Assembly: GCA_964453775.1 (NCBI GenBank)
Contig: CAYVSF010000002.1
Span: 1 to 27,281 of the forward strand
DNA length: 27,281 bases
From: an uncultured Bacteroidales bacterium
GTDB taxonomy: Bacteria; Bacteroidota; Bacteroidia; Bacteroidales; UBA12077
Direction: 5' to 3'
This document shows, piece by piece, positions 3,235 to 26,665 of this stretch; the first letter of the stretch is position 1; each line of letters starts with the position of its first letter. A program made the position numbers and the translations under genes. The notes under the pieces were generated by a model. It saw only the letters and a list, made by a program, of their open reading frames with translations, searched no databases and had not been told where the DNA came from.

Positions 3235-3236
3235 AA

Positions 3237-6160: not shown

Positions 6161-9100
6161 TTAGTTAATTATGAGGTTTTTGCTTATTGTTTGCAGCAAT
6201 TGATCAATATGAATGGGTTTGGAGATGTAGCTGTCAAAGCCAGCTTTTATGCATCTTTCTTCCTCATTATCATGAACATATGCCGTTTGGCCTATCACCC
6301 GAATATTGTTTCTAAATCGCTTAATTTCTTTGGTTGCTTCAAAACCATCCATAACCGGCATTTTGATATCCATTAATACCAAATCGATGTTTTCATTCTT
6401 TTTACACATCTCCACGGCTTCTTTTCCATCACGGGCCCATAATACCTTGGCTCTTGTTGGACTGAGCGCTTCCTGGATAAAAACATAGTTCATATCTAAA
6501 TCTTCAGCTATCAGCACAACCTTATTGTGCCAGTCATAACTGTCATCAGGGATGATTCCTGTTTCATCAAACTTGGGCTCATTAATTTCTAATGGAATAG
6601 TAAAATAAATGCTGGTACCTTCTTTGGGAGTGGATTGCACCCAGATATCGCCTCCCATAAATTTGATAATTTTCTTTGCAATAGACAGACCGATGCCAAT
6701 ACCTCCATACTCTCGTGTTGAAGAATCGTCTGCCTGGCGGAAGATTTCATAAATTTGTCCAAATTTATCTTTGTTGATGCCAATTCCCGAATCAATGACG
6801 TAGAATTGGAGCATGTTTTTATCCTTTAGCAGGCTGTAGCCTACTTCAACAAAGCCTTTATCGGTAAATTTAATGGCATTTTCAACCAGGTTGTAAACCA
6901 CTTGTCTCAGACGGCTTGGATCGGTAATTACCTTGAAATTTTTGTCCTTAATTCCTTTGTGCAGGGACAGCCCGATTTTTTTGTTTTGATTTCGCTGCAG
7001 TTTCAGTTCAAATTCGTTGTAAATATCCTGCAAGAGTGCATTGAGTTCGCATTCTGTTTTATGGAAAGCAATTTCTCCATTTTGGATCTTTGAAATATCA
7101 ATAACGTCGTCTATCAATTTAAGCAGGTTATTGCTGTTCTCAACTACCAGATTTTTAATTCGTTTTCGCTCGTCATCAGGCAGATTTTCTTCCATGAACA
7201 GGTTTGAAAATCCAATGATGGCATTTAAAGGGGTCCTGATTTCATGAGAAAGGTTGGCCAGGAAGGCAGATTTTAAATTATCTGCTTCTTCTGCTTTTTC
7301 CTTGGCAACAATCAGTTCTTTTTCACTTTTCTTCCTGTCCGAAATATTTTCCGAAATAAATACGAAGTGTGTAATTTCGTTTTTCTCATTGCGAACAGCA
7401 GATATTGAAGTTAGTTCCCAGTATAACTCTCCTGTTTTTTTACGGTTGTTAAATTCTCCCTGCCAATCCTCGCCTGTTTTAACATACTCCATGATATCGT
7501 TGAAGAGTGTGTCCGAGAGTTTTTCGGGTCGCAAGATGCTGATTTTTTCACCTTCTACTTCTTCGGCACTATAGGTCGTAACTTCAGTAAAAGCAGGGTT
7601 CACATATTCAATATTCCCTTCAAGATTGGTAATTGCCACGCTAACCGGGGAATGGTGAATAGCATTGGAAAGAATATGCAGCTTGTATTCGGTTTCTTTT
7701 CTTCGTGTGATATCCAGGGATACCCCGCCAATTTTCCACTTGTTGTCCGTACCAATAAAACGGAATTTATGTGTCATATAGGTATGTGCATTGCCTTCCT
7801 TATCGGGCAAATCCTCTTCAACCACCAATACTTTCCCCTCTAAAACCTGCTTGTCTTCTTTAATCACCCTTTTAGCATATTTTGATGGGAAGATTTCCTG
7901 AGGGGTTTTATTCATGCAATCCGATTTTGAAAAAACGGTATCCATGTATTTGTTAAGATAAATAGCTTTGCCATCCTCATCTTTTATAAAAATACCGAGG
8001 GGCAGGTTGTCCATAAAAATGGAAAATTGTCTTTCGGATTTTTTCAGAGCTTCTTCGATTGCTATTCGTTGGGATATATCTTTGTAATCTTCTATAACAC
8101 CTAGCAATTCTCCGTTTTCTCCCTTAAAGGCCACTGCTGTGAGAATACCGGGAATTGTTTTTCCAGCCTTATTTCTTTTTTTGATGTCTTGTTCTACCAG
8201 TTCTTCACCATTTTTGATTCTGTTAATCGGGCACTCTGCAGTATGGCAAAAAGGTCCGGGGAACACGTCGTAGCATTTTTTGCCTTCGGCATCTTCTTTA
8301 CTTATTCCAGATGTGTTGGTAAACGACCGGTTTACCCGTAATACGGTATAATCCTTAGTAATCAGACGCATGCTGTTCCCGGTGGTGTTGAAAATTTGAT
8401 TCAACTCCGTATTCGTGTCGATAATTTCTTTTGATTTTTCAGCAATTCTGGCATCCAGGGAGTTTTGTAGATTGAAGAATTTGTCCAGTAGGCTGTTAAA
8501 TGAGAAGTACAGTATCAAGAAAACAGCAATAAGAATGAGGAAAATAATTAAAAGAGATTTATAAATATATATTAGGTACTGATTTTGAAGCTTGCTGACA
8601 TCTTTCGCTAAATAGATACCAGTGAAACCCTGCGAGGTAAAAATATTCTCTACAGGAAGATAGTTCAGGTACCACACTTTATCTTTTATGCGTGTTAATC
8701 CGGTGGGAAGGTCTTTAGATATGGGTTTTTCTAATAATTCAGGAAAAAGGGTGCTATTTACCGAAGGCCTGTACATCTTATTCTGATGGAGAAGCCCTTT
8801 GTTGAATTTTATTTGGAGTTCATTGTTCAGAGCATCTTTCTCAAAAACGGAGGCAATAGATACTTCATGCTCTTGATGGATATAATCTAATATTTCTTTT
8901 TCATGAATTCCAAATTCAATACATCCGATGTACTCATTATTAAAGAAAACGGGTTCGGTAATGATGTAAACCAATTCGTTATTTTCCAGCCCAAAGCCCA
9001 TTAATTTTTGGCGGGTAGAGTTTACTTCTTTTACCCATCGAGAGGGTGGTGCGTCCACTTCTTGTTCGGGTCCTTTGGCTGTTTTAAGCAAGAGCTGATT

Positions 9101-9448
9101 TCCAGGCGTGTAAAAGTTAATGATAAAAGAGAATGGGTATTCGGCTTTAAGGACTGAGTAATAAGGGAAAACCGTTTTGTATAGCTGTTGGGAGTCATTT
9201 GCGGCGAATTGCTTTTTTATTTTAGGATTGGTAACAAAATAGTGGATCTTTTCCCGAAAGAGTTGATTGGTGGTGTACAATAGGTTTTTAATCTCCAATT
9301 GTACGATTTCACTGTTCTTTTGGATTTTCCAGTCACGAGCCTGCTTCTGACTTTTTAGGCCAATAAAAAAGTAGAGTGTTGACAATCCTAGCAGAACAAG
9401 CATTACAGCCAGAATTGTTTTGTTTCTTAGTTTCGTTTCAAAGTTCAT
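6161..9448 (-). CDS. Hybrid sensor histidine kinase/response regulator (TM-Cache-TM-PAS x3-HisKA-HATPase-REC)
   Basis: H box FLANLSHEIRTPLNAIIGF, N box NLVENAIKFT, G1 DSGIGI, G2 GIGIGLSI. Receiver motifs IAED, LMDIKMPVMDG, SKP. Three PAS-like repeats and two TM helices flanking a Cache-like periplasmic region. Confidence 0.93.
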   Translation of the reverse strand: MNFETKLRNKTILAVMLVLLGLSTLYFFIGLKSQKQARDWKIQKNSEIVQLEIKNLLYTTNQLFREKIHYFVTNPKIKKQFAANDSQQLYKTVFPYYSVLKAEYPFSFIINFYTPGNQLLLKTAKGPEQEVDAPPSRWVKEVNSTRQKLMGFGLENNELVYIITEPVFFNNEYIGCIEFGIHEKEILDYIHQEHEVSIASVFEKDALNNELQIKFNKGLLHQNKMYRPSVNSTLFPELLEKPISKDLPTGLTRIKDKVWYLNYLPVENIFTSQGFTGIYLAKDVSKLQNQYLIYIYKSLLIIFLILIAVFLILYFSFNSLLDKFFNLQNSLDARIAEKSKEIIDTNTELNQIFNTTGNSMRLITKDYTVLRVNRSFTNTSGISKEDAEGKKCYDVFPGPFCHTAECPINRIKNGEELVEQDIKKRNKAGKTIPGILTAVAFKGENGELLGVIEDYKDISQRIAIEEALKKSERQFSIFMDNLPLGIFIKDEDGKAIYLNKYMDTVFSKSDCMNKTPQEIFPSKYAKRVIKEDKQVLEGKVLVVEEDLPDKEGNAHTYMTHKFRFIGTDNKWKIGGVSLDITRRKETEYKLHILSNAIHHSPVSVAITNLEGNIEYVNPAFTEVTTYSAEEVEGEKISILRPEKLSDTLFNDIMEYVKTGEDWQGEFNNRKKTGELYWELTSISAVRNEKNEITHFVFISENISDRKKSEKELIVAKEKAEEADNLKSAFLANLSHEIRTPLNAIIGFSNLFMEENLPDDERKRIKNLVVENSNNLLKLIDDVIDISKIQNGEIAFHKTECELNALLQDIYNEFELKLQRNQNKKIGLSLHKGIKDKNFKVITDPSRLRQVVYNLVENAIKFTDKGFVEVGYSLLKDKNMLQFYVIDSGIGINKDKFGQIYEIFRQADDSSTREYGGIGIGLSIAKKIIKFMGGDIWVQSTPKEGTSIYFTIPLEINEPKFDETGIIPDDSYDWHNKVVLIAEDLDMNYVFIQEALSPTRAKVLWARDGKEAVEMCKKNENIDLVLMDIKMPVMDGFEATKEIKRFRNNIRVIGQTAYVHDNEEERCIKAGFDSYISKPIHIDQLLQTISKNLIIN

Positions 9449-13502: not shown

Positions 13503-15062
13503 TTACTTCTCAGCTTCTTCCGCCATGACACCCTCTTCGGTCATCACCAGGGAATTGTCGTAAATCGATGAAAATGAAGTGTTAGAATTTCTTCGCATGT
13601 AATTGATGAGTTCCTTCATGCTTTTGTCCACATATATTTTTTGATTTTCGGGGATGTAAACTCTGATGGTTACTTCTGGCATCTTCCATTTTATGTCCCT
13701 GTCCAGGTAATAGTAAGGGTCAAAGATGATGAGGCTGTCCTTTACGACCAGCTGATATTGAATGGCCTCCAGGGTTTTTGTTGCCTCCACTGAAGTTGCC
13801 CCTCTACCCCCTTTTTCAATTTCGATATGGGTATTTTCATTATCACCCGGATAGATATAAACCCTTGGATGCTGGTATACATTATTCTCCATGTCTAATT
13901 TTAGATCCAACTCTTCATCAAAGAGATATAGGGTGCTCATGTCATCCAACTCTGTTTCGGCTGTTTTTAAATACAAGCTTTGATCTTTTTCAATATTTAC
14001 ATCCATTTTTTCTTTGTCACCGGCTTTAATCATATAATCTTTCGCCTCAATAAAGATAGTAGCTGCAAGAATCAGAAGACTAAAAATCCAGGCGATAAGG
14101 CCAACAATCGCAAGTGCCCGGTCGTTTGATTTAAAGTTAAGCACCAGTTTTAATCCGCCATAGAGAATAGCAACAACAGGAATAAGTACCACGAAAACAG
14201 CACTTACAGGAATAATAACAGCACTATACGGATTCACAAAAAGTTCAAAAATTCCAGGGGATAAGATTTCCCCGGATGAAAAGAAGTGAGTTGCCGTGAA
14301 GGGTTCGCTAAACACAAATAAACCCGTAAAGGTGATAAGCATACCTAAGCCTGAAATAATCAGTGCTATACCTAGAATGACTAGAATAAACTTGACAAAA
14401 AACTTAAGGACTTCACCCACCCCCTGGAAAAAACGATAAAAGAAATCATTGGCCTGTTTTACTTCCGTACTGTCTTTAAGCTTCGATAGATTTTGTTTTA
14501 CTTCCCGGTATTCTTTTTTCACATTATTCTGAATATCAGATATATGGTTTGCTTTTCCCTTCATCTGCATTTTTTCTTTGCTACTGATAGCAGGGGGAAT
14601 AAATATCCATAAAATCAGGTAAATAATTGCTGCTGAAAAATAGAGAAAGGTAAACAGGATAAAAAGAAAGCGAATAATGCCCACTTCTAAATTCAGGTAG
14701 TGAGACAGTCCGGAACAAACGCCGCCAAAGATGCGTGTTTCTGTATCTCGGAACAGCTTTTTGTTATGTTTTTCTTCATTCGTATCGTCCTCCTCATATT
14801 CTTCCGAAATTTCTCCGGGTTTTCCCATTGTTTCAATTATTTTTTCGATATCTTCAAGGCTTACAACTTGTTTTTTTTCTGATATTTTGGTTTCCATCCA
14901 TTCGGCTATCCTGTTTTCAATGTCCTGGATGATTTCATCTGAAGCTTCCTCCTTTGAAAAATATTCAGAAAGTTGCCCCAAATATTGGTTCAGCTTTTCA
15001 TACGCATCTTCATCAATATGAAAAACCTGGCCACCGATGTTCATTTTGATTGTTTTCTTCAT
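13503..15062 (-). CDS. Long PspC domain protein (N-terminal HAAS-like helical domain, PspC, multi-TM, extracytoplasmic C-terminal domain)
   Basis: Start moved to 15062 (MKKTIKMNIGG...) because the ORF-track extension overlaps padR. PspC motif KLFRDTETRIFGGVCSGL...IYLILWIFIP. Confidence 0.87.
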   Translation of the reverse strand: MKKTIKMNIGGQVFHIDEDAYEKLNQYLGQLSEYFSKEEASDEIIQDIENRIAEWMETKISEKKQVVSLEDIEKIIETMGKPGEISEEYEEDDTNEEKHNKKLFRDTETRIFGGVCSGLSHYLNLEVGIIRFLFILFTFLYFSAAIIYLILWIFIPPAISSKEKMQMKGKANHISDIQNNVKKEYREVKQNLSKLKDSTEVKQANDFFYRFFQGVGEVLKFFVKFILVILGIALIISGLGMLITFTGLFVFSEPFTATHFFSSGEILSPGIFELFVNPYSAVIIPVSAVFVVLIPVVAILYGGLKLVLNFKSNDRALAIVGLIAWIFSLLILAATIFIEAKDYMIKAGDKEKMDVNIEKDQSLYLKTAETELDDMSTLYLFDEELDLKLDMENNVYQHPRVYIYPGDNENTHIEIEKGGRGATSVEATKTLEAIQYQLVVKDSLIIFDPYYYLDRDIKWKMPEVTIRVYIPENQKIYVDKSMKELINYMRRNSNTSFSSIYDNSLVMTEEGVMAEEAEK

Positions 15063-15099
15063 TATATCCGGATTTTTAATCAGTGATTCGCTGATTGAT

Positions 15100-15441
15100 T
15101 TACTGTTTTTTGCTTTGGTTTTCCTGAATGCTATTAACTGCATGCACCAGCTCTTCCCATGATTTATCCAATTCCTGCAGAAACTCACCTCCCTTTTCCG
15201 TTAAACTGTAGTATTTTCTTGGAGGGCCTTGGGTTGATTCTTCCCAGCGGTATTTTAACAGTCCGGCGTTTTTTTGTCTGGTAAGCAAAGGATAAAGTGT
15301 GCCTTCCACAACAATTAGTCGGGCTTCTTTAAGCTTGTTGATAATATCGGAGGCATAGTAGTCTTGGTGCTTAAGCAGTCCTAAAATGCAGTATTCCAGG
15401 ATTCCTTTTTTCATTTGTGCTTTCGTATTTTCTGGATTCAT
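15100..15441 (-). CDS. PadR family transcriptional regulator
   Basis: AQMKKGILEYCIL...YASDII..L...VEGTLYPLLTR...WEESTQGPPRKYYSLT.KG is the canonical Bacteroidota PadR pattern. Confidence 0.93.
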   Translation of the reverse strand: MNPENTKAQMKKGILEYCILGLLKHQDYYASDIINKLKEARLIVVEGTLYPLLTRQKNAGLLKYRWEESTQGPPRKYYSLTEKGGEFLQELDKSWEELVHAVNSIQENQSKKQ

Positions 15442-15458
15442 AGTGCTTGCTTGATTCG

Positions 15459-16058
15459 TTAGAAATTCATTTTTTTTCTCACATCCTCAAATTCATTCTT
15501 AATGGATTTAACGATATTGTCAATGTTTACCGGTTCTCCTTGCATTTCAAGTTTTTGGGCGGTAGTTGTTGCTTCCGGAATTACCATCCAAAGAATAAGA
15601 TAGAGAATCAACCCTGTACCCATGAATAAGATGAGCAAGGCAAATAGTATTCTAAAAACCAATGGGTCGGTTTTAAAATAGGCACCTAAACCGGCACACA
15701 CACCTCCAAAAATCCTTCTTTCCGTATCCCGGTAAAGTCTTTTACTGGCCTGTTTCTGCTTTTTTTGCTTTCCCCGATCAGTGTTTTCCTCCTCTTCGGG
15801 TGCAAAATCCTCAGGTTCACCTAAAATTTTCATTACAGCTTTGATGTCTTCTATTGTAATTACTTGTTTCTGATGATCCACCCTTTCCAAAAATAGTTCT
15901 GCTATCCTGCTTTCAATATCGGCCATTATTTCTTTCTTTTCGGTTTCATTGATGAATTCTTTTTCAATGGAACCCAGATAAGCCTGCAACATTTCAAAAG
16001 CAGATAAATCGGTATCGAAAACCATTCCACCAAGATTTACAGATATTGCTTTCTCCAT
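15459..16058 (-). CDS. Short PspC domain protein (HAAS-like + PspC)
   Basis: ATG at 16058 (the ORF track uses TTG at 16067). Contains RLYRDTERRIFGGVCAGL...LYLILWMVIP and is collinear with the N-terminus of the long paralog. Confidence 0.87.
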   Translation of the reverse strand: MEKAISVNLGGMVFDTDLSAFEMLQAYLGSIEKEFINETEKKEIMADIESRIAELFLERVDHQKQVITIEDIKAVMKILGEPEDFAPEEEENTDRGKQKKQKQASKRLYRDTERRIFGGVCAGLGAYFKTDPLVFRILFALLILFMGTGLILYLILWMVIPEATTTAQKLEMQGEPVNIDNIVKSIKNEFEDVRKKMNF

Positions 16059-16088
16059 AATAATCAATTTATATAATACTTATTAATG

Positions 16089-16221: not shown

Positions 16222-17025
16222 ATGGCTAAAAAATTTAGGGGACATCTTAAAAAAATGATAGCAAAACCAGAAAACCCTGTGGTTTATGAACAGGAGTGGG
16301 ATGGGGATGATTTTATTTGGAATGATTTACTGGGACAGGAGATCAGGATGCAATTTCTTGAAGAAATTAGATGCATTCGCTGTGGAAGGATTACTCGTAA
16401 ATCCTATCATCAGGGTTATTGCTATCCCTGCTATAAAACTGCTCCGCAAACCGCAGATTGTATTTTACATCCCGAACGGTGTATGGCCCACAAAGGCATT
16501 GCAAGGGATTTGGAATGGTCGGAGAAGAATTGCCTGCAAGATCATTTTGTTTATCTTACCCAAACCAGCAATATTAAGGTTGGCGTAACCCGGGGGAGTC
16601 AGGTGCCCACAAGATGGTTGGATCAAGGTGCGGTTGCTGCAGTTCGAATAGCAAAACTGCCCAACAGAAACCGAGCAGGTGAGCTGGAGGTTGCGCTTAA
16701 AAAATATATCGCCGATAAAACCAACTGGAGAAATATGTTAAAGGAAACTCCAATTGAAGAGAAGCTTCTGGAGGCAGAGAGGAAAAATATACTTCCGAAG
16801 ATTTCCAAAGATTTCAGCGATTACCTAATAGAAGACGATACCATTCAGCACTTTAATTATCCGGTAGAGAAATACCCTGAAAAAGTAAAGCCGATTAATC
16901 TGGAAAAAGATAAGCAGATGAAAGCGAAGCTTATGGGCATTAAAGGCCAATATTTGATTTTTGATGAAGGTTTAGTACTTAATGTCAGAAGACACAATGG
17001 TTATCTGGTAGAAATTGAGGTTTAA
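16222..17025 (+). CDS. DUF2797-like protein (Cys-rich)
   Basis: CIRCG...QGYCYPC...CILHPERC...VYL...KVGVTR..QVPTRWLDQGA...KLMGIKGQYLIF is the DUF2797 pattern, recognised from memory. Confidence 0.8.
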   Translation: MAKKFRGHLKKMIAKPENPVVYEQEWDGDDFIWNDLLGQEIRMQFLEEIRCIRCGRITRKSYHQGYCYPCYKTAPQTADCILHPERCMAHKGIARDLEWSEKNCLQDHFVYLTQTSNIKVGVTRGSQVPTRWLDQGAVAAVRIAKLPNRNRAGELEVALKKYIADKTNWRNMLKETPIEEKLLEAERKNILPKISKDFSDYLIEDDTIQHFNYPVEKYPEKVKPINLEKDKQMKAKLMGIKGQYLIFDEGLVLNVRRHNGYLVEIEV

Positions 17026-20000
17026 TCCTCATTTCTATTGTCTTTTATCGCTTTGTTTAATTCTTCCTGGATATTTTCCAGCTGTTTTTTCTTTTTTACT
17101 TCCCTTAGCTTTTGGGCTGTGGTAGTAAAATAATGATGTCCTTTAATAAAGTTACTCTGATGATCGTTCCACTCCTCAAGGTTTTTTATTTTACCTCTTT
17201 CATGCATTTCTTTATAAAGATTTACAGAAACGGGCACGAAATCGGCACGTCCCAGGTAATCCAGATCTGCATCACACATTATTTCTTCCAGAAGGTTTTG
17301 GGGGTTAGGCGGCATTCTGGTAGCCATAATTAATGCAGTAATTTTTTCTATTTGTTCTTGGTTATAATGGTATCTTGGCAGGATTTTTTGAGCCATTTTA
17401 GCGCTTTCTTCTTCATGGGTATCATAATCAACAATATGCCCCATGTCATGAAAAAGGGCAGCAGTTTTGAGCAACAGCATATCTTCATCCGATATTTTTT
17501 CTGATCTTCCTATAAGTTCCACTTGTGTTACCACATCAATGGTATGCTTTACACTGTGATAGTATAAATTATCAGGCAGACCGTTTTCGAGCTTGCTCAA
17601 TACATATTCTTCGATATCATTTAAGCGAAGAAGTTGCAGCTGAGTGAAGAAAGAATCATTTGGGTATAATCCTTTTATATCGGAAGCCATTTCTGGCATA
17701 AAGCTTTCTACGAAATACATATCAATTTCTCCTTTATATTTTACCGGCATTTTACCCCGGTATTTACAAATGAAAAAATCTTTAATGAGCATATAGGTGT
17801 TTTCCGTAATATTTATTTTTCCGGGCTCACCGGAGGCTTCCATACGACTTGCTGTGTTTACTGTTCCGCCCCATATATCGTAAGAAATTTTACTTCTTCC
17901 AAGAACACCTGCAACCACGGGGCCTGTGTCTATCCCAATTCTTAAATCCCAAATTTTTTGTTTTCCATCACCCGATTCATGCTTTAGCGATTTCATGTAA
18001 TTTTGCATTTCCATCGCTGCTAGCACGACTTCTACCGGGTTGGTTCTGTTTTTTTCCGGAATACCACCAGCACACATGTATGCATCGCCAATTGTTTTTA
18101 TTTTTTCTATATTGTATTTTTCTACTACCTCATCGAATTTAAGGAAGAATTTGTCCAGTTCATCAATTAAATGCTCCGAGTCCAGCTGTTCTGATATTTT
18201 AGTAAATCCCTGTATGTCACTAAATAACACAGTAACCATGTTGTAATGATAGGGCCCTGCCCGTTTGCCTGATTTTAGTTCTTTGGCAGTGGTTTTCGGG
18301 AGTACCCGTTCAAGAAGGCGGTCGGCTTTCTCTTTTTGTAGAACAACTTCTTCGGTACGTTCGTTTATGATATTTTCCAGGCGAAACTTTTCTTTAGCAA
18401 AATAATAAGAGCGCCATTTTAGTAACAGAAAAATTAAAGCACCTATTACGGCAATATATATAAAGTACGCTACCGGATTCCTATACAAAGGAGGTTTTAT
18501 TCGAAATGAAAAGCTTTGTGTTGGACTTACTGTATCGTATATATTTTTTGCGCGAAGGTGTAGGGTGTAATTTCCTTCTCTAAGATTCGCAAAGCTTACA
18601 GCGTTTTGGTTGGTCCAATCTGACCAGGAATCTTCAAGACCTTCCAGTTTAGTTTGGAATCTTACAAGGTCTTCATTTTGGAACCCTTTTGCAGAATACG
18701 AAAATGCAACCTGGTTAAAATCATAGTTGAAGATAAATGATTTATTTGCATTTATTTGCGGTTGAGTTAGGCCGTTATAAAGTAGAGAATCTTTTCCAAT
18801 CGTAATTTGATTAAAGGCTACTTCACAAGGATGTGACATGGAAGGGTGATTGCTATCAAACCGGATTAAACCTTCAAATCCGCCAACCCATATTATTCCG
18901 GTAGTATCTGTATGGATTGAGTTTACAAACAGCTGGTCTAATTTATTGAATGATAGTATTTGATGTGATTCTTGCTCTGTTGTATCATATCTGTGAACGT
19001 AAACGTTTTTTCTACCCTTATCCAGGTTATGCTCTGTTAACCAAATATCTCCTTTTTCATCTTCGATGATTGGGAAAAACCAGGATTGATTAGCTTTGGA
19101 TTCCGGTTTCAACTCTTTGTCAGGATAAAACAAGTTTTTATCATGATCGTAGTGAAATAAGCCGAGGTTTGTTGAAAAAAACAGCCCCGATGATGTATTG
19201 TATAGTCTTACCCATTCCACTTCACCATATGTCTGAAGGGCTTTTTTGTAATCATATGTGTGTACTTTCATGTCGGGCCTGTAGGTTTCGAAAGCAGGAA
19301 TCATATAGAGTTTCGAAAACTTCCCCGACAACCAAATATTCCCATTATTATCTTCTGTAATGCTATTGATACCTTCCTTTATTTGTTCCATCTTTTTTTG
19401 GTGAATAAGCAATCCACCTTCAAGTCGAACGATTTGCAAGCCATCGTTTCGGCCCAGGAATAATAACTTTCCGTAGTTTTTACTATGATAGGCTGTTATA
19501 ATATCTCCAATTTCACGGTTGTAAAAAAGTGAGGATTTAAGATCACGGATACGATAACTACCGGTGCTGGTAACAACAAATAATTGATTATTGTAATGGA
19601 AAAAATAGTAGGATGGCATTCTTAAATGGCTTATCTGTTGAAAGGTATTGCAATTTTCACAAGGTAGTTTTTCCCGAGAATGGTTTAGTCCGTATACACC
19701 CTGGCTGGTAGCAATGTATATGTAATTCCTGTCCGAAATAATACTGTTGATGTTCCCTTCCAGCCCATGATTTTCATCGAAGTAACTAAAAGGGGAGGTG
19801 ATTTCTATTCTACTTATTCCATGATTATGGGCAGCCCACAGATTTGATTCATTATCTGTAAATAGATGATTGATTTGGGTGTCATACAATCCATCCTGTC
19901 TGTTGATGATTTGTTGTAAATTACCTGTTTCAGAGAGGATCAGGATGCCTGAATACTGTGTTCCCAGGGCAATTTTATTCCCTGCAATATTAACAGCACA

Positions 20001-20756
20001 TGTAATGTTGTCTCCTTTTAATAGATCCTTTTTGTTGAATTTTACAGGTCTTAACCCTCTATTCTCAATAAAGTAAAGACTATTATCTGCGGTAATTACC
20101 ATCATTTTTTCGGGTAAAGATAAAATGGCCGTAATTTTTCGGTTTTCAAAGAACATACCGGCTTTTATCGGAGAGATGTTATTCCTGTTTATCTGAAACA
20201 AGCCAATATTTTTTTTATGAAGTAAAACTCTGTTCTTTGTTGAGAAGAGTTGCATTCCTTCACCCTCGTCGATTAAAACGGCATGAGAATTCAACTGGTA
20301 ATAAAGTTTGTTATCAGCAATAAAATAGATGTTTTCATTGCCGGCAATAATTTGTTGAATCGTTTCAATGGAGATTGAAAGGGAGTCTTGGATTTCTTTC
20401 AAATAAGGTTCATTCAGGGCGTTGTAAGCCAAAACACCAATGCAGTTATGAGCTCCAATAATAGTTTGGTTTTCAGAGATGGCGCTATAAACCCGCCCAT
20501 TCGTTTTTATTCTTTTCCATTTGAACCCATTGTATAATAAAAGTCCATTGGTGTTTTCTACAATTAAAAGTCCTTCTGGAGATTGACGAATGGCAAAATT
20601 ATTGGATTCCGTTCCATAATTAGGAACAATAATTTTCTGAATATAAGGGCTCCCGGAAAAGCTCAGAGCGTTTTCTTTTTGGGCAGAAATTGCCAGAGAA
20701 AATAAGAAAACAGAAAAAAACAACGTAAAACTTCGAAAAAATCTGTTAAAATTCAT
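17022..20756 (-). CDS. Membrane-anchored class III adenylate cyclase with periplasmic beta-propeller/Y_Y_Y sensor and C-terminal HD domain
   Basis: Start moved to 20756 (signal peptide MNFNRFF...LAISA-Q). Propeller repeats, Y_Y_Y (FQTKLEGLEDSWS...GNYTLHLRAKN) and one TM helix. Cyclase motifs VLFSDIQGFT, EKIKTIGDAYM, RIGIDTGPVVAG, YDIWGGTVNTASRME. HD motifs YHSVKHT, FHDMGH, HEEES, CDADLDYLG. Confidence 0.92.
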   Translation of the reverse strand: MNFNRFFRSFTLFFSVFLFSLAISAQKENALSFSGSPYIQKIIVPNYGTESNNFAIRQSPEGLLIVENTNGLLLYNGFKWKRIKTNGRVYSAISENQTIIGAHNCIGVLAYNALNEPYLKEIQDSLSISIETIQQIIAGNENIYFIADNKLYYQLNSHAVLIDEGEGMQLFSTKNRVLLHKKNIGLFQINRNNISPIKAGMFFENRKITAILSLPEKMMVITADNSLYFIENRGLRPVKFNKKDLLKGDNITCAVNIAGNKIALGTQYSGILILSETGNLQQIINRQDGLYDTQINHLFTDNESNLWAAHNHGISRIEITSPFSYFDENHGLEGNINSIISDRNYIYIATSQGVYGLNHSREKLPCENCNTFQQISHLRMPSYYFFHYNNQLFVVTSTGSYRIRDLKSSLFYNREIGDIITAYHSKNYGKLLFLGRNDGLQIVRLEGGLLIHQKKMEQIKEGINSITEDNNGNIWLSGKFSKLYMIPAFETYRPDMKVHTYDYKKALQTYGEVEWVRLYNTSSGLFFSTNLGLFHYDHDKNLFYPDKELKPESKANQSWFFPIIEDEKGDIWLTEHNLDKGRKNVYVHRYDTTEQESHQILSFNKLDQLFVNSIHTDTTGIIWVGGFEGLIRFDSNHPSMSHPCEVAFNQITIGKDSLLYNGLTQPQINANKSFIFNYDFNQVAFSYSAKGFQNEDLVRFQTKLEGLEDSWSDWTNQNAVSFANLREGNYTLHLRAKNIYDTVSPTQSFSFRIKPPLYRNPVAYFIYIAVIGALIFLLLKWRSYYFAKEKFRLENIINERTEEVVLQKEKADRLLERVLPKTTAKELKSGKRAGPYHYNMVTVLFSDIQGFTKISEQLDSEHLIDELDKFFLKFDEVVEKYNIEKIKTIGDAYMCAGGIPEKNRTNPVEVVLAAMEMQNYMKSLKHESGDGKQKIWDLRIGIDTGPVVAGVLGRSKISYDIWGGTVNTASRMEASGEPGKINITENTYMLIKDFFICKYRGKMPVKYKGEIDMYFVESFMPEMASDIKGLYPNDSFFTQLQLLRLNDIEEYVLSKLENGLPDNLYYHSVKHTIDVVTQVELIGRSEKISDEDMLLLKTAALFHDMGHIVDYDTHEEESAKMAQKILPRYHYNQEQIEKITALIMATRMPPNPQNLLEEIMCDADLDYLGRADFVPVSVNLYKEMHERGKIKNLEEWNDHQSNFIKGHHYFTTTAQKLREVKKKKQLENIQEELNKAIKDNRNED

Positions 20757-20846
20757 ATCTTGGCCTTTGGGAGGAATGTTGCATCTTGAAATATAATAAA
20801 TTATTTTTATTCCTCGTTGGTTTAAAAGAATAAAATATTTCCGGTT

Positions 20847-21677
20847 ATGGAAGATCACCACGAAACAATTTTGGTTCCCTGGGATTTTACTCCAGTTGCT
20901 GAGTGTGCATTGGAACATGCGTTCCGTATGGCAAAGAAGATAGATTGTAAAAGTATTACCTTGCTGCATATTATTAAGAAAAGCAGGGAATATGACGATG
21001 CCCATAAACGCTTGACACTTATGGCTGGAGATTTTTCGGGGAAGAATGGAGTAAAGGTAGAAGTTGAAGTAAGTGTAGGCAGTATTTTTACAACCATCGC
21101 AGAAAAGGCTGATGAATTAAAAGCCAGTCTTGTTATTATGGGGACGCATGGAATTAAAGGTATGCAAAAACTTACCGGAAGCTGGGCCCTTAAAGTAATT
21201 GTGAGTTCAAAAGTCCCATTTGTTGTTGTTCAGGAACCACCTCACGAGAATGATATGGAGAAGGTGATTTTCCCGGTAGATTTTAAACGGGAAAACAAAG
21301 AAATTTTGAACTGGGTAAGCTACCTTTCTCATTTTTATAAATTAAAGTTCTATATCATAAAGCCCAACACTACTGATTTAGGTTTTATAAAAAGAATTAA
21401 AGGAAATATTGCATTTGCACGGCGGTTTTTAGATAGCAAGAATATTGATTACGAAATTCATGCCGCAGATGGCAAAAAAAGTTTTGCCGTAGAAACGATA
21501 GAGTATGCGCGGGAAATTCATGCGGATATGATTATTGTGATGTCAACGAAGAATATTGGTTTGGCTGATTATGTCATTGGTGCCTCTGAGCAATACATAA
21601 TTGCCAATGCTGCTAAGATTCCTGTGATGGTGATTAATCCCCGTGAAGATTTGACACGGTTTGGATCATTCGGATAG
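20847..21677 (+). CDS. Universal stress protein with two USP domains
   Basis: TILVPWDFT..AECALEHA, LVIMGTHG..G...GS, SKVPFVVV, then a second domain (VIFPVDF...IPVMVI). Confidence 0.9.
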   Translation: MEDHHETILVPWDFTPVAECALEHAFRMAKKIDCKSITLLHIIKKSREYDDAHKRLTLMAGDFSGKNGVKVEVEVSVGSIFTTIAEKADELKASLVIMGTHGIKGMQKLTGSWALKVIVSSKVPFVVVQEPPHENDMEKVIFPVDFKRENKEILNWVSYLSHFYKLKFYIIKPNTTDLGFIKRIKGNIAFARRFLDSKNIDYEIHAADGKKSFAVETIEYAREIHADMIIVMSTKNIGLADYVIGASEQYIIANAAKIPVMVINPREDLTRFGSFG

Positions 21678-21760: not shown

Positions 21761-22339
21761 ATGGAGTTAATTTTTGCTACCAATAATAAACATAAACTTT
21801 CAGAGGTTGTCCCTCTTTTGGATGATCGATTCGACTTACTAAGTCTTGAAGATATTAGTTGCCGTGAAGATATTCCGGAAGATCAGGATACGCTGGAAGG
21901 GAACGCTTCTCAAAAAGCCTGGTATATATACAATAAATATCAGAAATCATGTTTTGCCGATGATACAGGGCTTGAAATTGAAGCTTTGAAAGGAAACCCC
22001 GGGGTTATTAGTGCCAGATATGCCGGTCAGCAAAGAAGCGCTCAGGATAATATGAGAAAAGTATTGGAGGAAATGAAGGGAGAGAACAATCGAAATGCAA
22101 GGTTTAGAACAGTTATCAGCCTTATTTGGCAAGGAAGAGAATATCAATTTGAAGGGGTTGTTGAGGGTTCAATTATAGCACAACAAAAAGGAGGGGAAGG
22201 TTTTGGTTATGATCCCATTTTTATTCCGGAAAATCACCAGGAGACTTTTGCCGAGATGGAGTTGAAGGAAAAGAATAAGATTAGTCATCGATCCCGGGCT
22301 ATAAATAAACTGGTAACTTTTTTAAATCAACATATTTAG
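21761..22339 (+). CDS. rdgB: Non-canonical purine NTP pyrophosphatase (RdgB/HAM1)
   Basis: FATNNKHK, ADDTGLEIEALKGNPGVISARYAG, GFGYDPIF, KNKISHR. Confidence 0.95.
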   Translation: MELIFATNNKHKLSEVVPLLDDRFDLLSLEDISCREDIPEDQDTLEGNASQKAWYIYNKYQKSCFADDTGLEIEALKGNPGVISARYAGQQRSAQDNMRKVLEEMKGENNRNARFRTVISLIWQGREYQFEGVVEGSIIAQQKGGEGFGYDPIFIPENHQETFAEMELKEKNKISHRSRAINKLVTFLNQHI

Positions 22340-22393: not shown

Positions 22394-24679
22394 ATGATAC
22401 GGAGATTATTACTTTCTGGAGTGTTCCTTCTTGCTACTTTTTGCTCTTTTGCACAAATAGGTGTTGGTGAATGGAGAAGTCACCTCCCTTATGCTCACGC
22501 AATTGATATAGCCTATACCGGGGAAAGGGTGTATGCCGCTACGGAGCAGGCGCTGTTTTATTATGATGTGAATACCCGTTCTCTGGACAAACTTACTAAG
22601 GTGAATGCTTTATCGGATATCGGTATTTCGGCTATAGGTTATGATGAGTTGACAGAAAACCTGTTGGTGGCTTACAATAATGGAAACATTGATTTATTAA
22701 AAGACAATAACATTTATAATCTTTCCGATATTAAGAGAAAACCATTGGTTGGGGATAAAACGATTTATGATGTGCGCTTTTTTGATGGGCAGGCCTGGTT
22801 GAGTTGTGGCTTCGGTATTGTGGTTGTGAGTCTTGAAAACAGAGAAATTAAAGACAGCTATTTCATTGGAGATTTAGGCACGCAAATAAGAGTTTATGAA
22901 GTAACCCGGGATGACAATTATTATTATGCCGCAACGGATGAAGGACTTTACCGGGCCCCTTTAGAAGGTGTGAATCTGGCAGACTATTCCAATTGGGAGT
23001 TATTGACAGATATCCCCGATTATGCAGGCTCATTTTCCGCTATCAAAATGTATAATTCATTCCTGGTTGCAGTGAGGTCCTACGAAGATGGACCTGATAT
23101 GGTACTTAGAAAAAATGGGGCAAATTGGTCTGTACTTCGCTCTGATTTGATTGATGTGAATAAGGTTGCTGTTTCTCAGAATCAGCTTTATATCCTATCT
23201 TCACAAGGGGTGTTTATATATGACGGGGACTTTAATTTGATAGATGAAATTACAGCCTATAACGATTCAGAAATCAATCCTATGAATATTACCAGTGATG
23301 CTGGGGGGAATCTTTGGATTGCTGATGAGCTGAATGGGCTATTAAAATTGGATAATGGATTTGATTTTTACATTCCAAATGGTCCTTACACAGAAAATGC
23401 ATTTGACGTGGCAGCTGTAAATGATAAAATCTATGTTGCTGCAGGAGGATTGACGCCGGCTTTAAATAATGTATTTCTACCCGGGATGGTTTTTGTTTTT
23501 GAAGAAGAACAATGGGGTAGCATATTTAATTACGATGTTAGTGATATACTTCAAATTACCATTGATCCGCTTGACCCAGATCATTTTTTTGCTTCTACCT
23601 GGGGGAATGGATTGCTGGAATATCAGGATGGAGAGCTGTTAGCGGTTTATGATGAAAACACTTCAAATTTACAATCCATTTATCCGGGGAGTAATTTTGT
23701 TAGAGTTAGTGCTACCGCGATGGATGAACAGGGGAATTTGTGGATTGCTAATTCGCAGGTTACGGATCCTCTTGCCATGCTTGCTGAAGATGGCAATCTG
23801 GAAACCTATTACATGGATGGGATTGCCAGCAATTTAATAACTGGCGAAGTATTGGTAAGCGAAGCGGATCATAAATGGCTATTGTTGAGGGAGGGCGGCG
23901 GAATCCTTGTCTTTAACCATAATGGAACGCCCTTTAATAAAAACGATGATAATTTTCGTCGATTTTCTCTTATTGATGGGGAAGGAACACTTATTAGTAA
24001 TGATGTGTATTGTATTGCTGAAGATATTGATGGAGAAATTTGGGTTGGAACTAACACAGGCATTGTTGTTTATTCCCAACCGGAAAATGTATTTTCCGGA
24101 GAAGATTTTTATGCCCGGCGCATCTTGGTTACCATAGACGATTATACAAATTATTTGCTTGAATCGCAGACAATTACTTCAATTGCTGTAGATGGCGCTA
24201 ATCGGAAATGGATTGGGACGGCAGGCACGGGGGTTTATCTTGTTTCCGAAGACGGACAGGAAGAAGTGTATCATTTTACAGCTGAAAATAGTCCATTACT
24301 TTCTAATAAAATCAATAACATCGCCATTGATAATGGAAGTGGGGAAGTTTTTTTCGCCACCGATAAAGGTTTGATATCCTACAGGGGTTCAGCAACAATG
24401 GGGAATGATGATTTCAGGGATGTATATGTATATCCGAATCCTGTCAGGCCCGATTACTCAGGTGAGATTACTGTTCGGGGATTGGTTGCAGATGCCATTG
24501 TAAAGATTACCGATCTGAGTGGCAACCTGGTATACGAGACCAAAGCAGAGGGCGGGCAGGCAACATGGAATGGGAAGAGTTTTTCAGGAGACCGTGCTGC
24601 ATCAGGGGTGTACCTTGTATTCTGCACAAACAGCGATGGAAGTAAAACCCATATTACCAAGTTCTTAATGCTGAAATAA
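22394..24679 (+). CDS. porZ: T9SS surface component PorZ (beta-propellers + CTD)
   Basis: Signal peptide ending FA-Q, GEWRSHLPY, LSDIGISAI, DGANRKWIGT...GVYL and a CTD (VYPNPVRP...KITDLSGNLVY...WNG...SGVYLVF). 761 aa. It sits next to the HAM1 gene, as I recall for other Bacteroidales. Confidence 0.85.
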   Translation: MIRRLLLSGVFLLATFCSFAQIGVGEWRSHLPYAHAIDIAYTGERVYAATEQALFYYDVNTRSLDKLTKVNALSDIGISAIGYDELTENLLVAYNNGNIDLLKDNNIYNLSDIKRKPLVGDKTIYDVRFFDGQAWLSCGFGIVVVSLENREIKDSYFIGDLGTQIRVYEVTRDDNYYYAATDEGLYRAPLEGVNLADYSNWELLTDIPDYAGSFSAIKMYNSFLVAVRSYEDGPDMVLRKNGANWSVLRSDLIDVNKVAVSQNQLYILSSQGVFIYDGDFNLIDEITAYNDSEINPMNITSDAGGNLWIADELNGLLKLDNGFDFYIPNGPYTENAFDVAAVNDKIYVAAGGLTPALNNVFLPGMVFVFEEEQWGSIFNYDVSDILQITIDPLDPDHFFASTWGNGLLEYQDGELLAVYDENTSNLQSIYPGSNFVRVSATAMDEQGNLWIANSQVTDPLAMLAEDGNLETYYMDGIASNLITGEVLVSEADHKWLLLREGGGILVFNHNGTPFNKNDDNFRRFSLIDGEGTLISNDVYCIAEDIDGEIWVGTNTGIVVYSQPENVFSGEDFYARRILVTIDDYTNYLLESQTITSIAVDGANRKWIGTAGTGVYLVSEDGQEEVYHFTAENSPLLSNKINNIAIDNGSGEVFFATDKGLISYRGSATMGNDDFRDVYVYPNPVRPDYSGEITVRGLVADAIVKITDLSGNLVYETKAEGGQATWNGKSFSGDRAASGVYLVFCTNSDGSKTHITKFLMLK

Positions 24680-24730: not shown

Positions 24731-26665
24731 TTAAGGGTTGATTTTTAATTGCCCCCAGGTATTTTCAATATCTACACTTACATTGGTTTCAGGAATTTGC
24801 TCTTTATTATTGACCATAATTGATTTTACAGCAACATTTTCTTTAAGATATTCCGAAAGCTCACGATAAGTAATATTTCCTTTTGTCTCCTGTAGTTTTT
24901 TTAGCAAATGATACGTAAACATGCCATGTTGCTTTTCTTTGTAAGGCAGTGAGGATTGGTCTCCCGAGCTGGCTGAAAACACCACCATATTGCCTTTAAA
25001 AATATTTTCTTTCGGTTGGATTTTTACTCCTCTGGCAGCAATTAGTCCCTGGTTTCTAGCACCGCCACTAAAGCAGGCATCCAGAAATACTGTTACCCTT
25101 TTGGTTGGAAACTCGGTTAGTTTTTTATAAACCTCATTGAGGCTCAGGGCAAATTCTAAATCCGAACCACTCACGTCTACAGGCATAATATAGGGCTCCT
25201 TGGTCTTTTCATCCGGGAAGCCATGGCCTGCATAATAGAAGAAAATTTCTGATTTTCCTTTGGTAATATTAGCAATCATGTTAATCTTATTAATAGCCCG
25301 GTGCATCTGAATAGCCCTGGCATCCGTAAGGAATATAATATTTTCTTCAGGTACGCCCAGCACATGTTGAGCATATTTTTTAAAGATCTCTGCATCTCTT
25401 TGCGCAAAATCAACATTGGCTTCTGTTTTAAGGCCCAGCTGAAAACTACTGTAGTCTTCATTTCCAATAATTAAAGCATAACGATAAGGATCTGGTTGGA
25501 TACCTAAATCCCGAATCAAGTCCACATCAATAACATTTCCCTGAACTTTTTGGGGCGTCGATACCACAGTGCCAGCAATTGCTTGATTTGTTTCTTGCTT
25601 CTTTTCCGGCTTTTTTTCCTCAACAACTTTTGTTTCCGGCTCGCTTTTCTCCTCAACAACTTCTTGCTCTTTGGGTTTATTTTGGGCCATTAAAATTGGT
25701 TTTTGAGCAGAGGAAGGAATGTTTAATGACGCAACATCCCATAAGCTGATGTCATAAGTAAAATCTGAGGTGAGTATTTTTTTGCCATCCGGACTGAATT
25801 CTGCAGTGAATATTTTGTCTCTTTGTTTCTCTGAACTGTAAACCATCTTTCCCGATTCAACTTCCCAAATAATAAAATAGCGATCATGGCTTCCGCTTAA
25901 CAGGTATTTGCTGTCGTTGCTAAACTGTACGGTTTGCACCCAATCGCGATGCGCAAGGAGGGAATTATATTCTTTCCCATCTTTCCATATCTGGATGCGT
26001 TTATCATCACCAGCACTTGCGATTAGGCTACCATCCGGGCTGTAGGCTACAGCCCTTACCCAGGAAGAATGTGCTTTTATGGAGGATATTTCATTTCCCC
26101 TGGGGATGTTCCATTCTTTTACTGTTTTATCTGCACTGCCGGATACCAATTTAGATCCTGAAGGATGAAACATCAATGAAGTCACATTTCCCCGATGTCC
26201 TTTTAAATCTTCAAGGAATCTTCCTCTTTCCAGATCCCAGAGTTTGATATACTCATCTGCGCTTCCTGAAGCTATGTATTTGTCATCCGCGCTAATATCA
26301 ATGGCAATGATTTGGTCGCGGTGGCCTTTCATATCATGAATGATTTTTCCGCTTTTATATTCCCATATTTTTACTTTATTGTCTTTGCCTCCGGATACTA
26401 AATAACGACTGTCATGCGTGAATTTTAATGCACGTGGCCAGCCACGAGTCTTCATTTCATTTATGATTGCACCGCTATGTGCATCCCAAATAACAATTTT
26501 ATTATCGGTTCCTCCGGTGGCGATGTATCGGGAGTCGGGGCTGTAGGCCGAACAGATCACCTGGTGCCCCCGCTTGTGCAATGTTTTCGATAATTGAATT
26601 TGCCCATGTCCGCTTGAAAATACGAAAAGAAAAGCGAGACTCAGTAGGATAATTCTTTTTTTCAT
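24731..26665 (-). CDS. Exported WD40 (7-blade) + caspase-like (peptidase C14) protein
   Basis: Signal peptide ending GHG-Q, seven WD repeats (e.g. KGHRGNVTSLMFHPSGSKLVSGSADKTVKEW) and a K/E/P linker. Caspase motifs YALIIGN, FYYAGHG (His), FLDACFSG (Cys), HGMFTYHLL. Confidence 0.9.
   Translation of the reverse strand: MKKRIILLSLAFLFVFSSGHGQIQLSKTLHKRGHQVICSAYSPDSRYIATGGTDNKIVIWDAHSGAIINEMKTRGWPRALKFTHDSRYLVSGGKDNKVKIWEYKSGKIIHDMKGHRDQIIAIDISADDKYIASGSADEYIKLWDLERGRFLEDLKGHRGNVTSLMFHPSGSKLVSGSADKTVKEWNIPRGNEISSIKAHSSWVRAVAYSPDGSLIASAGDDKRIQIWKDGKEYNSLLAHRDWVQTVQFSNDSKYLLSGSHDRYFIIWEVESGKMVYSSEKQRDKIFTAEFSPDGKKILTSDFTYDISLWDVASLNIPSSAQKPILMAQNKPKEQEVVEEKSEPETKVVEEKKPEKKQETNQAIAGTVVSTPQKVQGNVIDVDLIRDLGIQPDPYRYALIIGNEDYSSFQLGLKTEANVDFAQRDAEIFKKYAQHVLGVPEENIIFLTDARAIQMHRAINKINMIANITKGKSEIFFYYAGHGFPDEKTKEPYIMPVDVSGSDLEFALSLNEVYKKLTEFPTKRVTVFLDACFSGGARNQGLIAARGVKIQPKENIFKGNMVVFSASSGDQSSLPYKEKQHGMFTYHLLKKLQETKGNITYRELSEYLKENVAVKSIMVNNKEQIPETNVSVDIENTWGQLKINP

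Follow-up and report, generated by a model that had tools for sequence, protein, structure and literature searches.

The window examined here is a 27,281-nt stretch of contig CAYVSF010000002.1 (GenBank assembly GCA_964453775.1) from an uncultured Bacteroidales bacterium, and the subject of this analysis is a gene on its reverse strand at 17022..20756, which encodes a protein of 1244 amino acids (aa) with a sensor, a nucleotidyl cyclase and an HD-superfamily hydrolase domain. From N- to C-terminus, the protein runs through a signal or anchor peptide, a propeller and Y_Y_Y region of the type found in hybrid two-component systems (HTCS), one transmembrane (TM) helix, transducer helices, a class IIIa cyclase and the C-terminal HD domain; its domain and motif matches are far above chance. 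As read from the translation, the sensor (aa ~27-760) is periplasmic and is followed by the TM helix, with the cyclase and the HD domain on the cytoplasmic side. The gene ends with the stop codon at 17022-17024 and was taken to start at the ATG at 20756 (MNFNRFF...), in agreement with the homologue P0121 (95% identical, equal in length and start) and with the gene callers (three metagenomic contigs). The list of open reading frames (ORFs) also contained a longer frame, 17022..21005 on the reverse strand (1327 aa); this start was discarded because its 83 extra codons overlap the universal stress protein (USP) gene on the opposite strand and are used neither by the relatives nor by the gene callers. 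The features of the gene and of its upstream flank are as follows.

20679..20756, reverse strand: N-terminal signal peptide or membrane anchor, aa 1-26, MNFNRFFRSFTLFFSVFLFSLAISAQ; translation read by eye (basic N-terminus, hydrophobic core, small residues before Q26)
18687..20678, reverse strand: periplasmic beta-propeller region of Reg_prop type, aa 27-690; Pfam Reg_prop and homology to HTCS structures
18498..18683, reverse strand: Y_Y_Y (Ig-like) domain, aa 692-753; Pfam PF07495, E=1.2e-9, exceeding the cut-off
18414..18476, reverse strand: single TM helix, aa 761-781, PVAYFIYIAVIGALIFLLLKW; translation read by eye, with a hydrophobic stretch retained there in homologues
18249..18413, reverse strand: juxtamembrane helices, cyclase-transducer-like, aa 782-836, ...RLLERVLPKTTAKELK...; alignment with the pre-catalytic segment of AC8, AC5 and mycobacterial Cya, and two helices in the AlphaFold (AF2) model
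17706..18248, reverse strand: class III (IIIa-like) nucleotidyl cyclase domain, aa 837-1017; Pfam Guanylate_cyc, PDB sequence matches and Foldseek
17658..17705, reverse strand: linker between cyclase and HD domain, aa 1018-1033 (P1021, P1032 and N1033 conserved); alignment A1 and AF2 model
17025..17657, reverse strand: HD-superfamily hydrolase domain, aa 1034-1244; Pfam HD, family conservation and AF2
20757..20846, no strand: AT-rich divergent intergenic region of 90 bp between the cyclase-HD and USP genes; sequence reading
20847..21677, forward strand: tandem USP gene, 276 aa; Pfam Usp E=2.1e-25, in two stretches

A first-pass annotation, made from the letters of the window, had quoted short motifs for both catalytic domains, and all of them were found in the translation: FSD847IQG, GD891AY, K887 (within KIKT), YD960IW and VN967TASR971 for the cyclase, and Y1066-H1067-x3-H1071, H1103-D1104, H1114-E1115 and D1162-A-D1164 for the HD domain. 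It had placed the cyclase at ~18240-17700, where Pfam gives nt 17706-18248, and the HD domain at ~17620-17022, which corresponds to nt 17025-17657 here. The cyclase assignment (PF00211, aa 837-1017) reached E=1.9e-53 and 181.2 bits against a cut-off of 21.9, and the PDB sequence matches were mammalian AC8, AC5 and AC9, the Cya of M. intracellulare and Rv1625c, with E values from 1e-56 to 1e-38. The AC8 and AC5 alignments extend into the helices preceding the catalytic domain (RLLERVLPKTTAKELK), a segment which we take to be the cyclase transducer element, as is usual for class IIIa/b cyclases. AlphaFold modelled aa 803-1244 with a pLDDT of 88 and a pTM of 0.83, and the cyclase half of this model superposes on 5o5l and 5o5k, the top Foldseek matches (E 1e-19, TMt 0.84-0.87); rhodopsin guanylyl cyclases and GC-A were also among the Foldseek neighbours of the cyclase.

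The residues expected of a working enzyme are present, namely the metal-binding Asp pair D847/D891, the adenine-selecting pair K887/D960 and the transition-state residues N967 and R971, with a spacing equal to that of Rv1625c (K = D-4; D, +7 N, +4 R). Across 84 close homologues the six vary hardly or not at all, and they are retained in 96-105 of the ~105 cyclase-bearing family representatives (K887 in 98, D960 in 103). The Lys/Asp pair is the adenine-specifying combination of class III cyclases such as Rv1625c and the mammalian adenylate cyclases. We therefore confirmed the earlier description of a class III cyclase with both metal Asp residues, the Asn/Arg pair and the Lys/Asp pair, all of which are under purifying selection in homologues, and on a straightforward reading the domain would be an active, homodimeric, ATP-specific cyclase. 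Similar to the class IIIa membrane cyclases (Rv1625c/Cya, M. intracellulare Cya and the C2 domains of AC5/8/9), it shares the fold, the six residues and the Lys/Asp pair, as well as the helical transducer segment, the membrane anchoring and the implied homodimer. In contrast to those enzymes, a single TM helix after a periplasmic sensor of ~730 aa takes the place of the 6-TM bundle, and an additional C-terminal HD hydrolase domain is present, which none of them carries.

This HD domain was recognised by Pfam (PF01966, aa 1070-1164) with E=2.9e-9 in the whole protein and with E=1.2e-10 and 42.2 bits (cut-off 22) as an isolated domain. A Foldseek search with the two-domain model was uninformative on it, as 50 of the 50 listed matches were cyclases, so the HD domain was modelled alone, which gave ten helices with a pLDDT of 92.7. 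An HD-only query against 1.84 billion representative proteins returned 3838 relatives with E<=1e-3, 544 of them with E<=1e-30; the HD conservation and architecture counts given below refer to the best 150 of these 3838 (149 database representatives plus the window protein). The core residues are retained throughout this set: H1067 in 147, H1071 in 141, H1103 in 142, D1104 in 147, E1115 in 145, D1162 in all 150 and D1164 in 131. Residues conserved specifically in this clade are E1115, Y1167, R1170, D1172, W1196, Q1200, H1207 and R1218. The first-pass annotation had credited the domain with a full set of metal ligands. This holds for H1067, H1071, H1103-D1104 and D1162, which are present and conserved, but not for H1107 (of HDxxH), which is replaced by F or Y in 119/150, or for H1114, which is N in 44/150, and neither of the two is a family-wide ligand. 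Because the H...HD...D ligands and the H-x3-H motif are retained in 94-100% of the 150 representatives, the HD domain is probably catalytic. In the linker that joins it to the cyclase, P1032 is invariant and P1021 and N1033 are nearly so (alignment A1); with a linker pLDDT >90 and a two-domain pTM of 0.83, the HD domain is predicted to be rigidly joined to the cyclase. The top PDB match to the HD domain in a single-sequence search, a designed pentatricopeptide-repeat protein (E=3e-5), was dismissed as a repeat artefact caused by six very weak repeats on one helix pair; genuine HD structural relatives emerged only with a family profile.

The company kept by this HD domain points to cyclic nucleotides. 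A class III cyclase is fused to it in 109/149 of the best database representatives (110/150 with the window protein), and the architectures were distributed as follows.

Propeller, Y_Y_Y, cyclase and HD: 42/150
Y_Y_Y, cyclase and HD: 19/150
Propeller, cyclase and HD: 6/150
Cyclase and HD, with N-termini short or undetected: 42/150
HD without cyclase: 40/150, including ~30 stand-alone proteins of ~198 aa
Propeller, Y_Y_Y and HD without cyclase: 1/150 (P0370)

According to Pfam, the two domains also occur in the reverse order, as HD-cyclase (P0324) and HD-PAS-PAS-cyclase (P0357), and the HD domain is fused to domains that bind cyclic nucleoside monophosphates (cNMPs) in HD-cNMP_binding (P0325), HD-cNMP_binding-SpoIIE (P0349, P0356) and MFS-HEAT-cNMP_binding-HD (P0353). 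Further Pfam fusions of the clade are histidine kinase-receiver-HD (P0318, P0341) and HD-YitT (P0343). Where the HD domain stands alone, similar partners were found as neighbours. The gene for P0350 follows a same-strand HAMP-cyclase gene after 63 nt and is convergent with a HEAT-cNMP_binding gene, P0390 adjoins an operon for histidine kinase, receiver and receiver-cyclase proteins, and L071 holds a cyclase gene and a separate HD gene in convergent orientation, the latter immediately preceded by an ORF with a cNMP-binding domain; for the stand-alone P0336, the contigs were too short to give a neighbourhood. Such split modules were observed at L092 3502-9210, L093, L087 443-4852 and L071 4166-7231, one of them consisting of a HAMP-cyclase followed by a stand-alone 198-aa HD protein and facing a 1095-aa HEAT-cNMP_binding protein. 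Taken together, these loci resemble sets of writer, eraser and reader genes. A YitT-family membrane protein with DUF2179 is also recurrently tied to the HD clade, in the P0343 fusion and as an overlapping gene of the same operon (L087 3390-4852, L089 1158-2620). Because the HD domain is fused to a writer in both orders and to a reader domain, and because writer, HD and reader genes cluster when split, which makes three independent kinds of association, a cyclic-mononucleotide phosphodiesterase (PDE) would be the most economical function for the clade.

On the periplasmic side, the HTCS-type input proposed in the first-pass annotation was recovered as Reg_prop and Y_Y_Y matches in Pfam, homology to 3v9f and 4a2l, and a TM helix behind them. 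Reg_prop scored 33.2 bits over the whole protein (cut-off 20.4), with no individual repeat above the cut-off, and aa 27-760 are similar to the solved periplasmic domains of Bacteroides HTCS proteins (3v9f, E=4.6e-13; 4a2l/BT4663, E=5e-9). The protein resembles these HTCS proteins in its periplasmic Reg_prop propellers and Y_Y_Y domain followed by one TM helix and differs from them in its output, which is a cyclase with an HD domain and lacks the kinase, receiver and AraC domains, and in the lack of polysaccharide-utilisation genes nearby. Pfam detected no HisKA, HATPase_c, receiver or AraC-type HTH domain in the 1244-aa protein, which therefore falls outside the HTCS definition. HTCS cytoplasmic domains do occur in more distant relatives of the sensor (e.g. 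P0132, P0133), and other outputs found behind propeller/Y_Y_Y sensors are histidine kinases, SpoIIE phosphatases, GGDEF, LuxR-type and Ser/Thr kinase domains; such varied outputs are the normal modularity of this sensor. A glycan ligand for the propeller, as suggested by the HTCS-type sensor, was considered and dropped for want of a polysaccharide-utilisation context. No SusC/SusD, glycoside-hydrolase or polysaccharide-utilisation genes were found in the 27-kb window or in the related loci checked, and the sensor is the fastest-evolving and most exchangeable part of the protein, so that the glycan-sensing part of the earlier proposal was not borne out.

The contrast between sensor and output is seen most clearly in the comparison with relatives of ~51% overall identity, in which the cyclase is 86-88% and the HD domain 71-75% identical to the window protein, against 33-35% for the propeller. 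Similarly, the cytoplasmic part is 73-88% identical in orthologues whose propeller region is only 33-35% identical, and short forms of ~480-510 aa carry only a membrane anchor in place of the sensor (P0020). The propeller divergence and these anchor-only forms indicate that anchor, cyclase and HD domain are the conserved unit, with the periplasmic sensor as an exchangeable front end. In addition, the database records of some very close relatives (P0002-P0005, 80-82% identity) give lengths of only 466-472 aa, the start falling within the TM helix and, in P0004, on a Leu; the equally close loci L007 and L008 hold reading frames of 1252-1278 aa, and truncated gene calls or genes split in two are the probable cause of the short records.

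The survey of domain architectures that the first-pass annotation had proposed was carried out across genomes (one genome per GTDB species), and the module proved widespread in Bacteroidota, with variable N-terminal sensors. The complete cyclase-HD module was found only in this phylum, in four orders: carriers are Bacteroidales metagenome-assembled genomes, Marinifilum, Carboxylicivirga, Rikenellaceae, Crocinitomicaceae, Fluviicola, Taishania and other Flavobacteriales, Taibaiella (Chitinophagales) and Flectobacillus (Cytophagales). In the same scan, cyclase-only matches were many, in Bacteroidota and also in Leptospira, cyanobacteria and others. The relatives are named in the databases as 'adenylate/guanylate cyclase domain-containing protein' or 'HD domain-containing protein'. 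Dozens of 50%-identity clusters from across Bacteroidota have this architecture, and the protein is not unusual in sequence space.

A further constant of the locus is the tandem USP gene, which lies 90 bp upstream of the cyclase-HD gene in divergent orientation. The two genes stay together in relatives as identity falls to 40%, at which level all other neighbours have changed. Across the fetched loci, a USP gene lies within ~460 nt in 20/40 fused loci and in 0/44 cyclase-only loci (Fisher p=1.3e-8, a value inflated by the relatedness of the loci), and it does so in three arrangements, namely divergent upstream, convergent downstream and same-strand downstream (L004-L009, L011, L014, L016, L019-L021, L023, L025, L029-L031, L037, L069 and L074). 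The motif GTHGxxGxQxxTGSxALKV of the USP N-domain is retained in all aligned adjacent homologues except the most divergent copy (L011), and resembles the nucleotide-binding motif of ATP-binding USPs; the second USP domain appears degenerate. The best PDB matches of the protein were 3loq and MJ0577, with no Rv1636/MSMEG_3811 entry named among the matches. The mycobacterial USP Rv1636 has been reported to bind cyclic AMP (cAMP) (PMC11107214). Compared with Rv1636/MSMEG_3811, the neighbour shares the USP fold, has a related Gly-rich nucleotide motif and differs in being a tandem two-domain protein, Rv1636 being single-domain. As a hypothesis only, the USP is a candidate reader or buffer that may bind cAMP (or ATP).

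Both the synthase and the hydrolase active-site residues are intact within one polypeptide, and we lean slightly towards reading the protein as a ligand-controlled enzyme that would make and break cAMP, a reading in which we infer the products, the HD substrate and the reciprocal control of the two activities. The protein would be a homodimeric single-pass receptor in which binding of a ligand to the propeller/Y_Y_Y region would reposition the two TM helices; the structures of BT4663 reportedly show that ligand binding to the dimeric HTCS periplasmic domain repositions its two TM helices. The transducer helices would then shift the register of the cyclase dimer and change the rate at which ATP is converted to cAMP, and the HD domain, as a metal-dependent hydrolase, would cleave cAMP to 5'-AMP. 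Constitutive HD activity would produce short local pulses, and HD activity in antiphase with the cyclase would produce a true switch. In either form, a single polypeptide would set the rise plus the decay, or the spatial range, of the cAMP signal, and the tandem USP may, more speculatively, bind the nucleotide. The logic is that of GGDEF-EAL proteins and of RelA/SpoT (Rel), in which one messenger is made and broken in one polypeptide, and the hydrolase of Rel is also an HD domain. The synthase folds and the messengers differ, however, and the likeness is a functional analogy only.

Several observations weigh against this proposal, most of them concerning the HD domain. In the profile search, its nearest solved relatives were 2pq7 (5e-10), YedJ (1e-6) and YpgQ (9e-4), over ~100-130 of 198 positions, followed by PDE9A at 5e-3. 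Foldseek likewise ranked 2pq7 and YpgQ first (TMt 0.72, 19-23% identity), with PDE5 and PDE4D at a root-mean-square deviation of 6-10 A. PDEase_I (PF00233) scored 16.2 bits, below its cut-off of 24.8, with only profile positions 1-46 aligned. H-D-x-x-H-x-[AG]-x-x-N is the PROSITE-type signature of class I PDEs, and the HD domain deviates from it, reading H1103-D-M-G-H-I-V-D-Y-D. The domain has the HD fold, the Y-H-x3-H ... H-D ... D pattern and weak sequence and fold matches in common with class I PDEs (PDE4, PDE5, PDE9), but spans ~215 aa compared with ~330 aa, and stays below the PDEase_I threshold and without the signature. With 2pq7, YedJ, YpgQ and AtCN-PDE1 it shares a compact all-helical HD domain of ~200 aa and the H-x3-H ... 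HD ... D motif, and it differs from 2pq7, YedJ and YpgQ in an identity of only ~20%, in its own conserved residues and in its systematic fusion to signalling domains. Judged by these matches, it is a distinct clade of ~200 aa, nearest to the YedJ/YpgQ group though only distantly related to it, and not a class I PDE. Some homologues have degenerate HD motifs (P0081, 'HN'; P0095, 'NDANRAF' for 'CDADLDY'), and their HD domain may be regulatory. Moreover, no Crp-like cNMP-binding gene was found with a custom hidden Markov model (HMM) beside any fused cyclase-HD gene in all fetched loci and the window, where matches were limited to L045, L075 and L071, so that a Crp-type reader encoded in cis with the fused gene was unsupported. 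Finally, a constitutive cyclase together with a phosphodiesterase would amount to a futile cycle, reciprocal control being assumed, and biochemistry on any family member was not found in the literature.

An alternative explanation is that the cyclase is normal and the HD domain hydrolyses another nucleotide, such as (deoxy)nucleoside triphosphates ((d)NTPs), (p)ppGpp, Ap4A, 2',3'-cNMP or c-di-AMP, so that two nucleotide pools would be coupled. The ranking of 2pq7, YedJ and YpgQ ahead of PDE9A by profile and fold favours it, as does a Ham1/RdgB nucleoside triphosphate (NTP) pyrophosphatase gene that accompanies the locus in Bacteroidales relatives, and the bacterial YpgQ and YedJ have been described as Mn-dependent (d)NTP pyrophosphohydrolases (PMC6692503, PMC8177086). 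The identity to YpgQ is only ~20%, however, and a eukaryotic member of the same group, the Arabidopsis YpgQ/YedJ orthologue AtCN-PDE1, has itself been reported as a cNMP phosphodiesterase, acting on cGMP (PMC6692503); fold and sequence alone therefore leave the substrate unfixed. The cNMP_binding fusions and the clusters of cyclase, HD and cNMP_binding genes indicate cyclic mononucleotides, and we consider another substrate unlikely. The suggestion in the first-pass annotation that the HD domain acts on the cyclase product thus gains from the cyclase and cNMP_binding fusions and the gene neighbourhoods, whereas the nearest solved relatives, a group other than the class I PDEs with bacterial members described as (d)NTP pyrophosphohydrolases, speak against it.

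The HD domain could also be a non-catalytic module for regulation, nucleotide sensing or dimerisation that tunes the cyclase, like degenerate GGDEF/EAL domains. The degenerate motifs of P0081 (HN) and P0095 (CDADLDY lost) and the variability of H1107 and H1114 in the family would be in line with this, and the rigid predicted coupling to the cyclase would fit allostery. All core ligands are intact in the window protein, however, the retention of H1067, H1071, H1103, D1104, E1115 and D1162 is an active-site pattern, and the stand-alone 198-aa copies argue for autonomous activity, which makes this explanation improbable. Even less probable, in our estimate, is a cyclase that produces cGMP, cCMP or cUMP, to be removed by the HD domain. 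Class III domains do include guanylate and pyrimidine cyclases, and rhodopsin guanylyl cyclases and GC-A are among the structural neighbours; the adenine-specifying pair Lys887/Asp960, with its near-complete retention in cyclase-bearing relatives, and the adenylate cyclases as best sequence matches speak against it.

Several other genes of the window and of related loci are of note. Following the USP gene, a Ham1/RdgB-type non-canonical NTP pyrophosphatase is encoded at 21761..22339 on the forward strand, likewise in Bacteroidales, Marinifilum and Carboxylicivirga relatives, and in L012, L022 and L026 Ham1 is flanked by two cyclase-HD paralogues. At 22394..24679 (forward strand) lies a gene for a PorZ-like type IX secretion protein with an N-terminal propeller, a Reg_prop repeat and a C-terminal sorting domain; such a gene follows Ham1 in all Pfam-annotated loci (the window, L001/L002, L005 and L006). 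The reverse strand at 24731..26665 encodes a 644-aa protein that joins a WD40 propeller at its N-terminus to a caspase-like Peptidase_C14 domain (E=2.5e-18) at its C-terminus; the contigs with 95% identity, L001 and L002, have conserved it. On the other side of the cyclase gene, DUF2797 (16222..17025) is convergent with it, the two gene ends overlapping by 4 nt, and beyond it lies a block on the reverse strand at 13503..16067 for a PspC-domain protein (HAAS and PspC), a PadR regulator and a large PspC protein whose TM region is LiaF-like and which carries a toast-rack domain. This envelope-stress-type PspC block and DUF2797 are also found downstream of the cyclase gene in L001, L006, L007 and L008. 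In L005 (10918-13593), an 891-aa HD-CE and HATPase_c_3 protein is encoded directly downstream of the cyclase-HD gene and is followed by AAA_15/AAA_21 ATPase genes, which looks like a defence-island insertion. The second large sensor of the window is a 1095-aa hybrid histidine kinase (6161..9448, reverse strand) whose periplasmic domain is dCache_3-like and which also carries several PAS domains, HisKA, HATPase and a receiver. Three genes at 815..4634 (reverse strand), encoding an arginase/agmatinase-family protein, a fusion of GNAT and carbon-nitrogen hydrolase, and a PLP (pyridoxal phosphate)-dependent Orn/Arg decarboxylase, are a possible polyamine set and lie where the G+C of the window is raised (0.43-0.48 compared with 0.34-0.40 elsewhere).

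To our knowledge, cAMP signalling in Bacteroidota is essentially undescribed, and the bacterial cAMP phosphodiesterases known to us are of the CpdA/Rv0805 type (metallophosphoesterase) or class II. The cyclase-HD architecture is common in sequence space, and experimental characterisation of it was not found in the literature. In line with the first-pass annotation, which knew of no characterised example, we found none in the literature on such a fusion, coverage of which is thin for subscription journals, so that absence is not proof. Literature on Reg_prop with Guanylate_cyc, on HD-type bacterial cAMP phosphodiesterases and on cAMP in Flavobacterium, Cytophaga or Bacteroidota yielded nothing specific. 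A 2005 census of bacterial signalling proteins, which had four Bacteroidetes genomes at its disposal, listed no adenylate cyclases in them (PMC1183210), and a 2016 survey mentions in passing a cyclase-like gene beside an HD phosphohydrolase gene (HSW_3800/HSW_3799; PMC4886424).

Tentatively, and with more doubt than confidence, we suggest that the protein may be the first single-polypeptide adenylate cyclase/cAMP phosphodiesterase, that its HD domain may represent an unrecognised clade of bacterial cNMP phosphodiesterases, and that the USP as receptor may complete a phylum-wide writer-eraser-reader pathway of Bacteroidota. If true, an HD-type cAMP eraser hard-wired to its cyclase would end the signal in a new way and be the cAMP counterpart of GGDEF-EAL and Rel proteins. 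The USP neighbour would be a concrete candidate effector, and the exchangeable sensors (propeller/Y_Y_Y, Y_Y_Y only, bare anchor) would offer a natural series for the study of transmembrane control of class III cyclases. Found in four orders of Bacteroidota, the module could open up cAMP biology in a major group of environmental and gut-associated bacteria.

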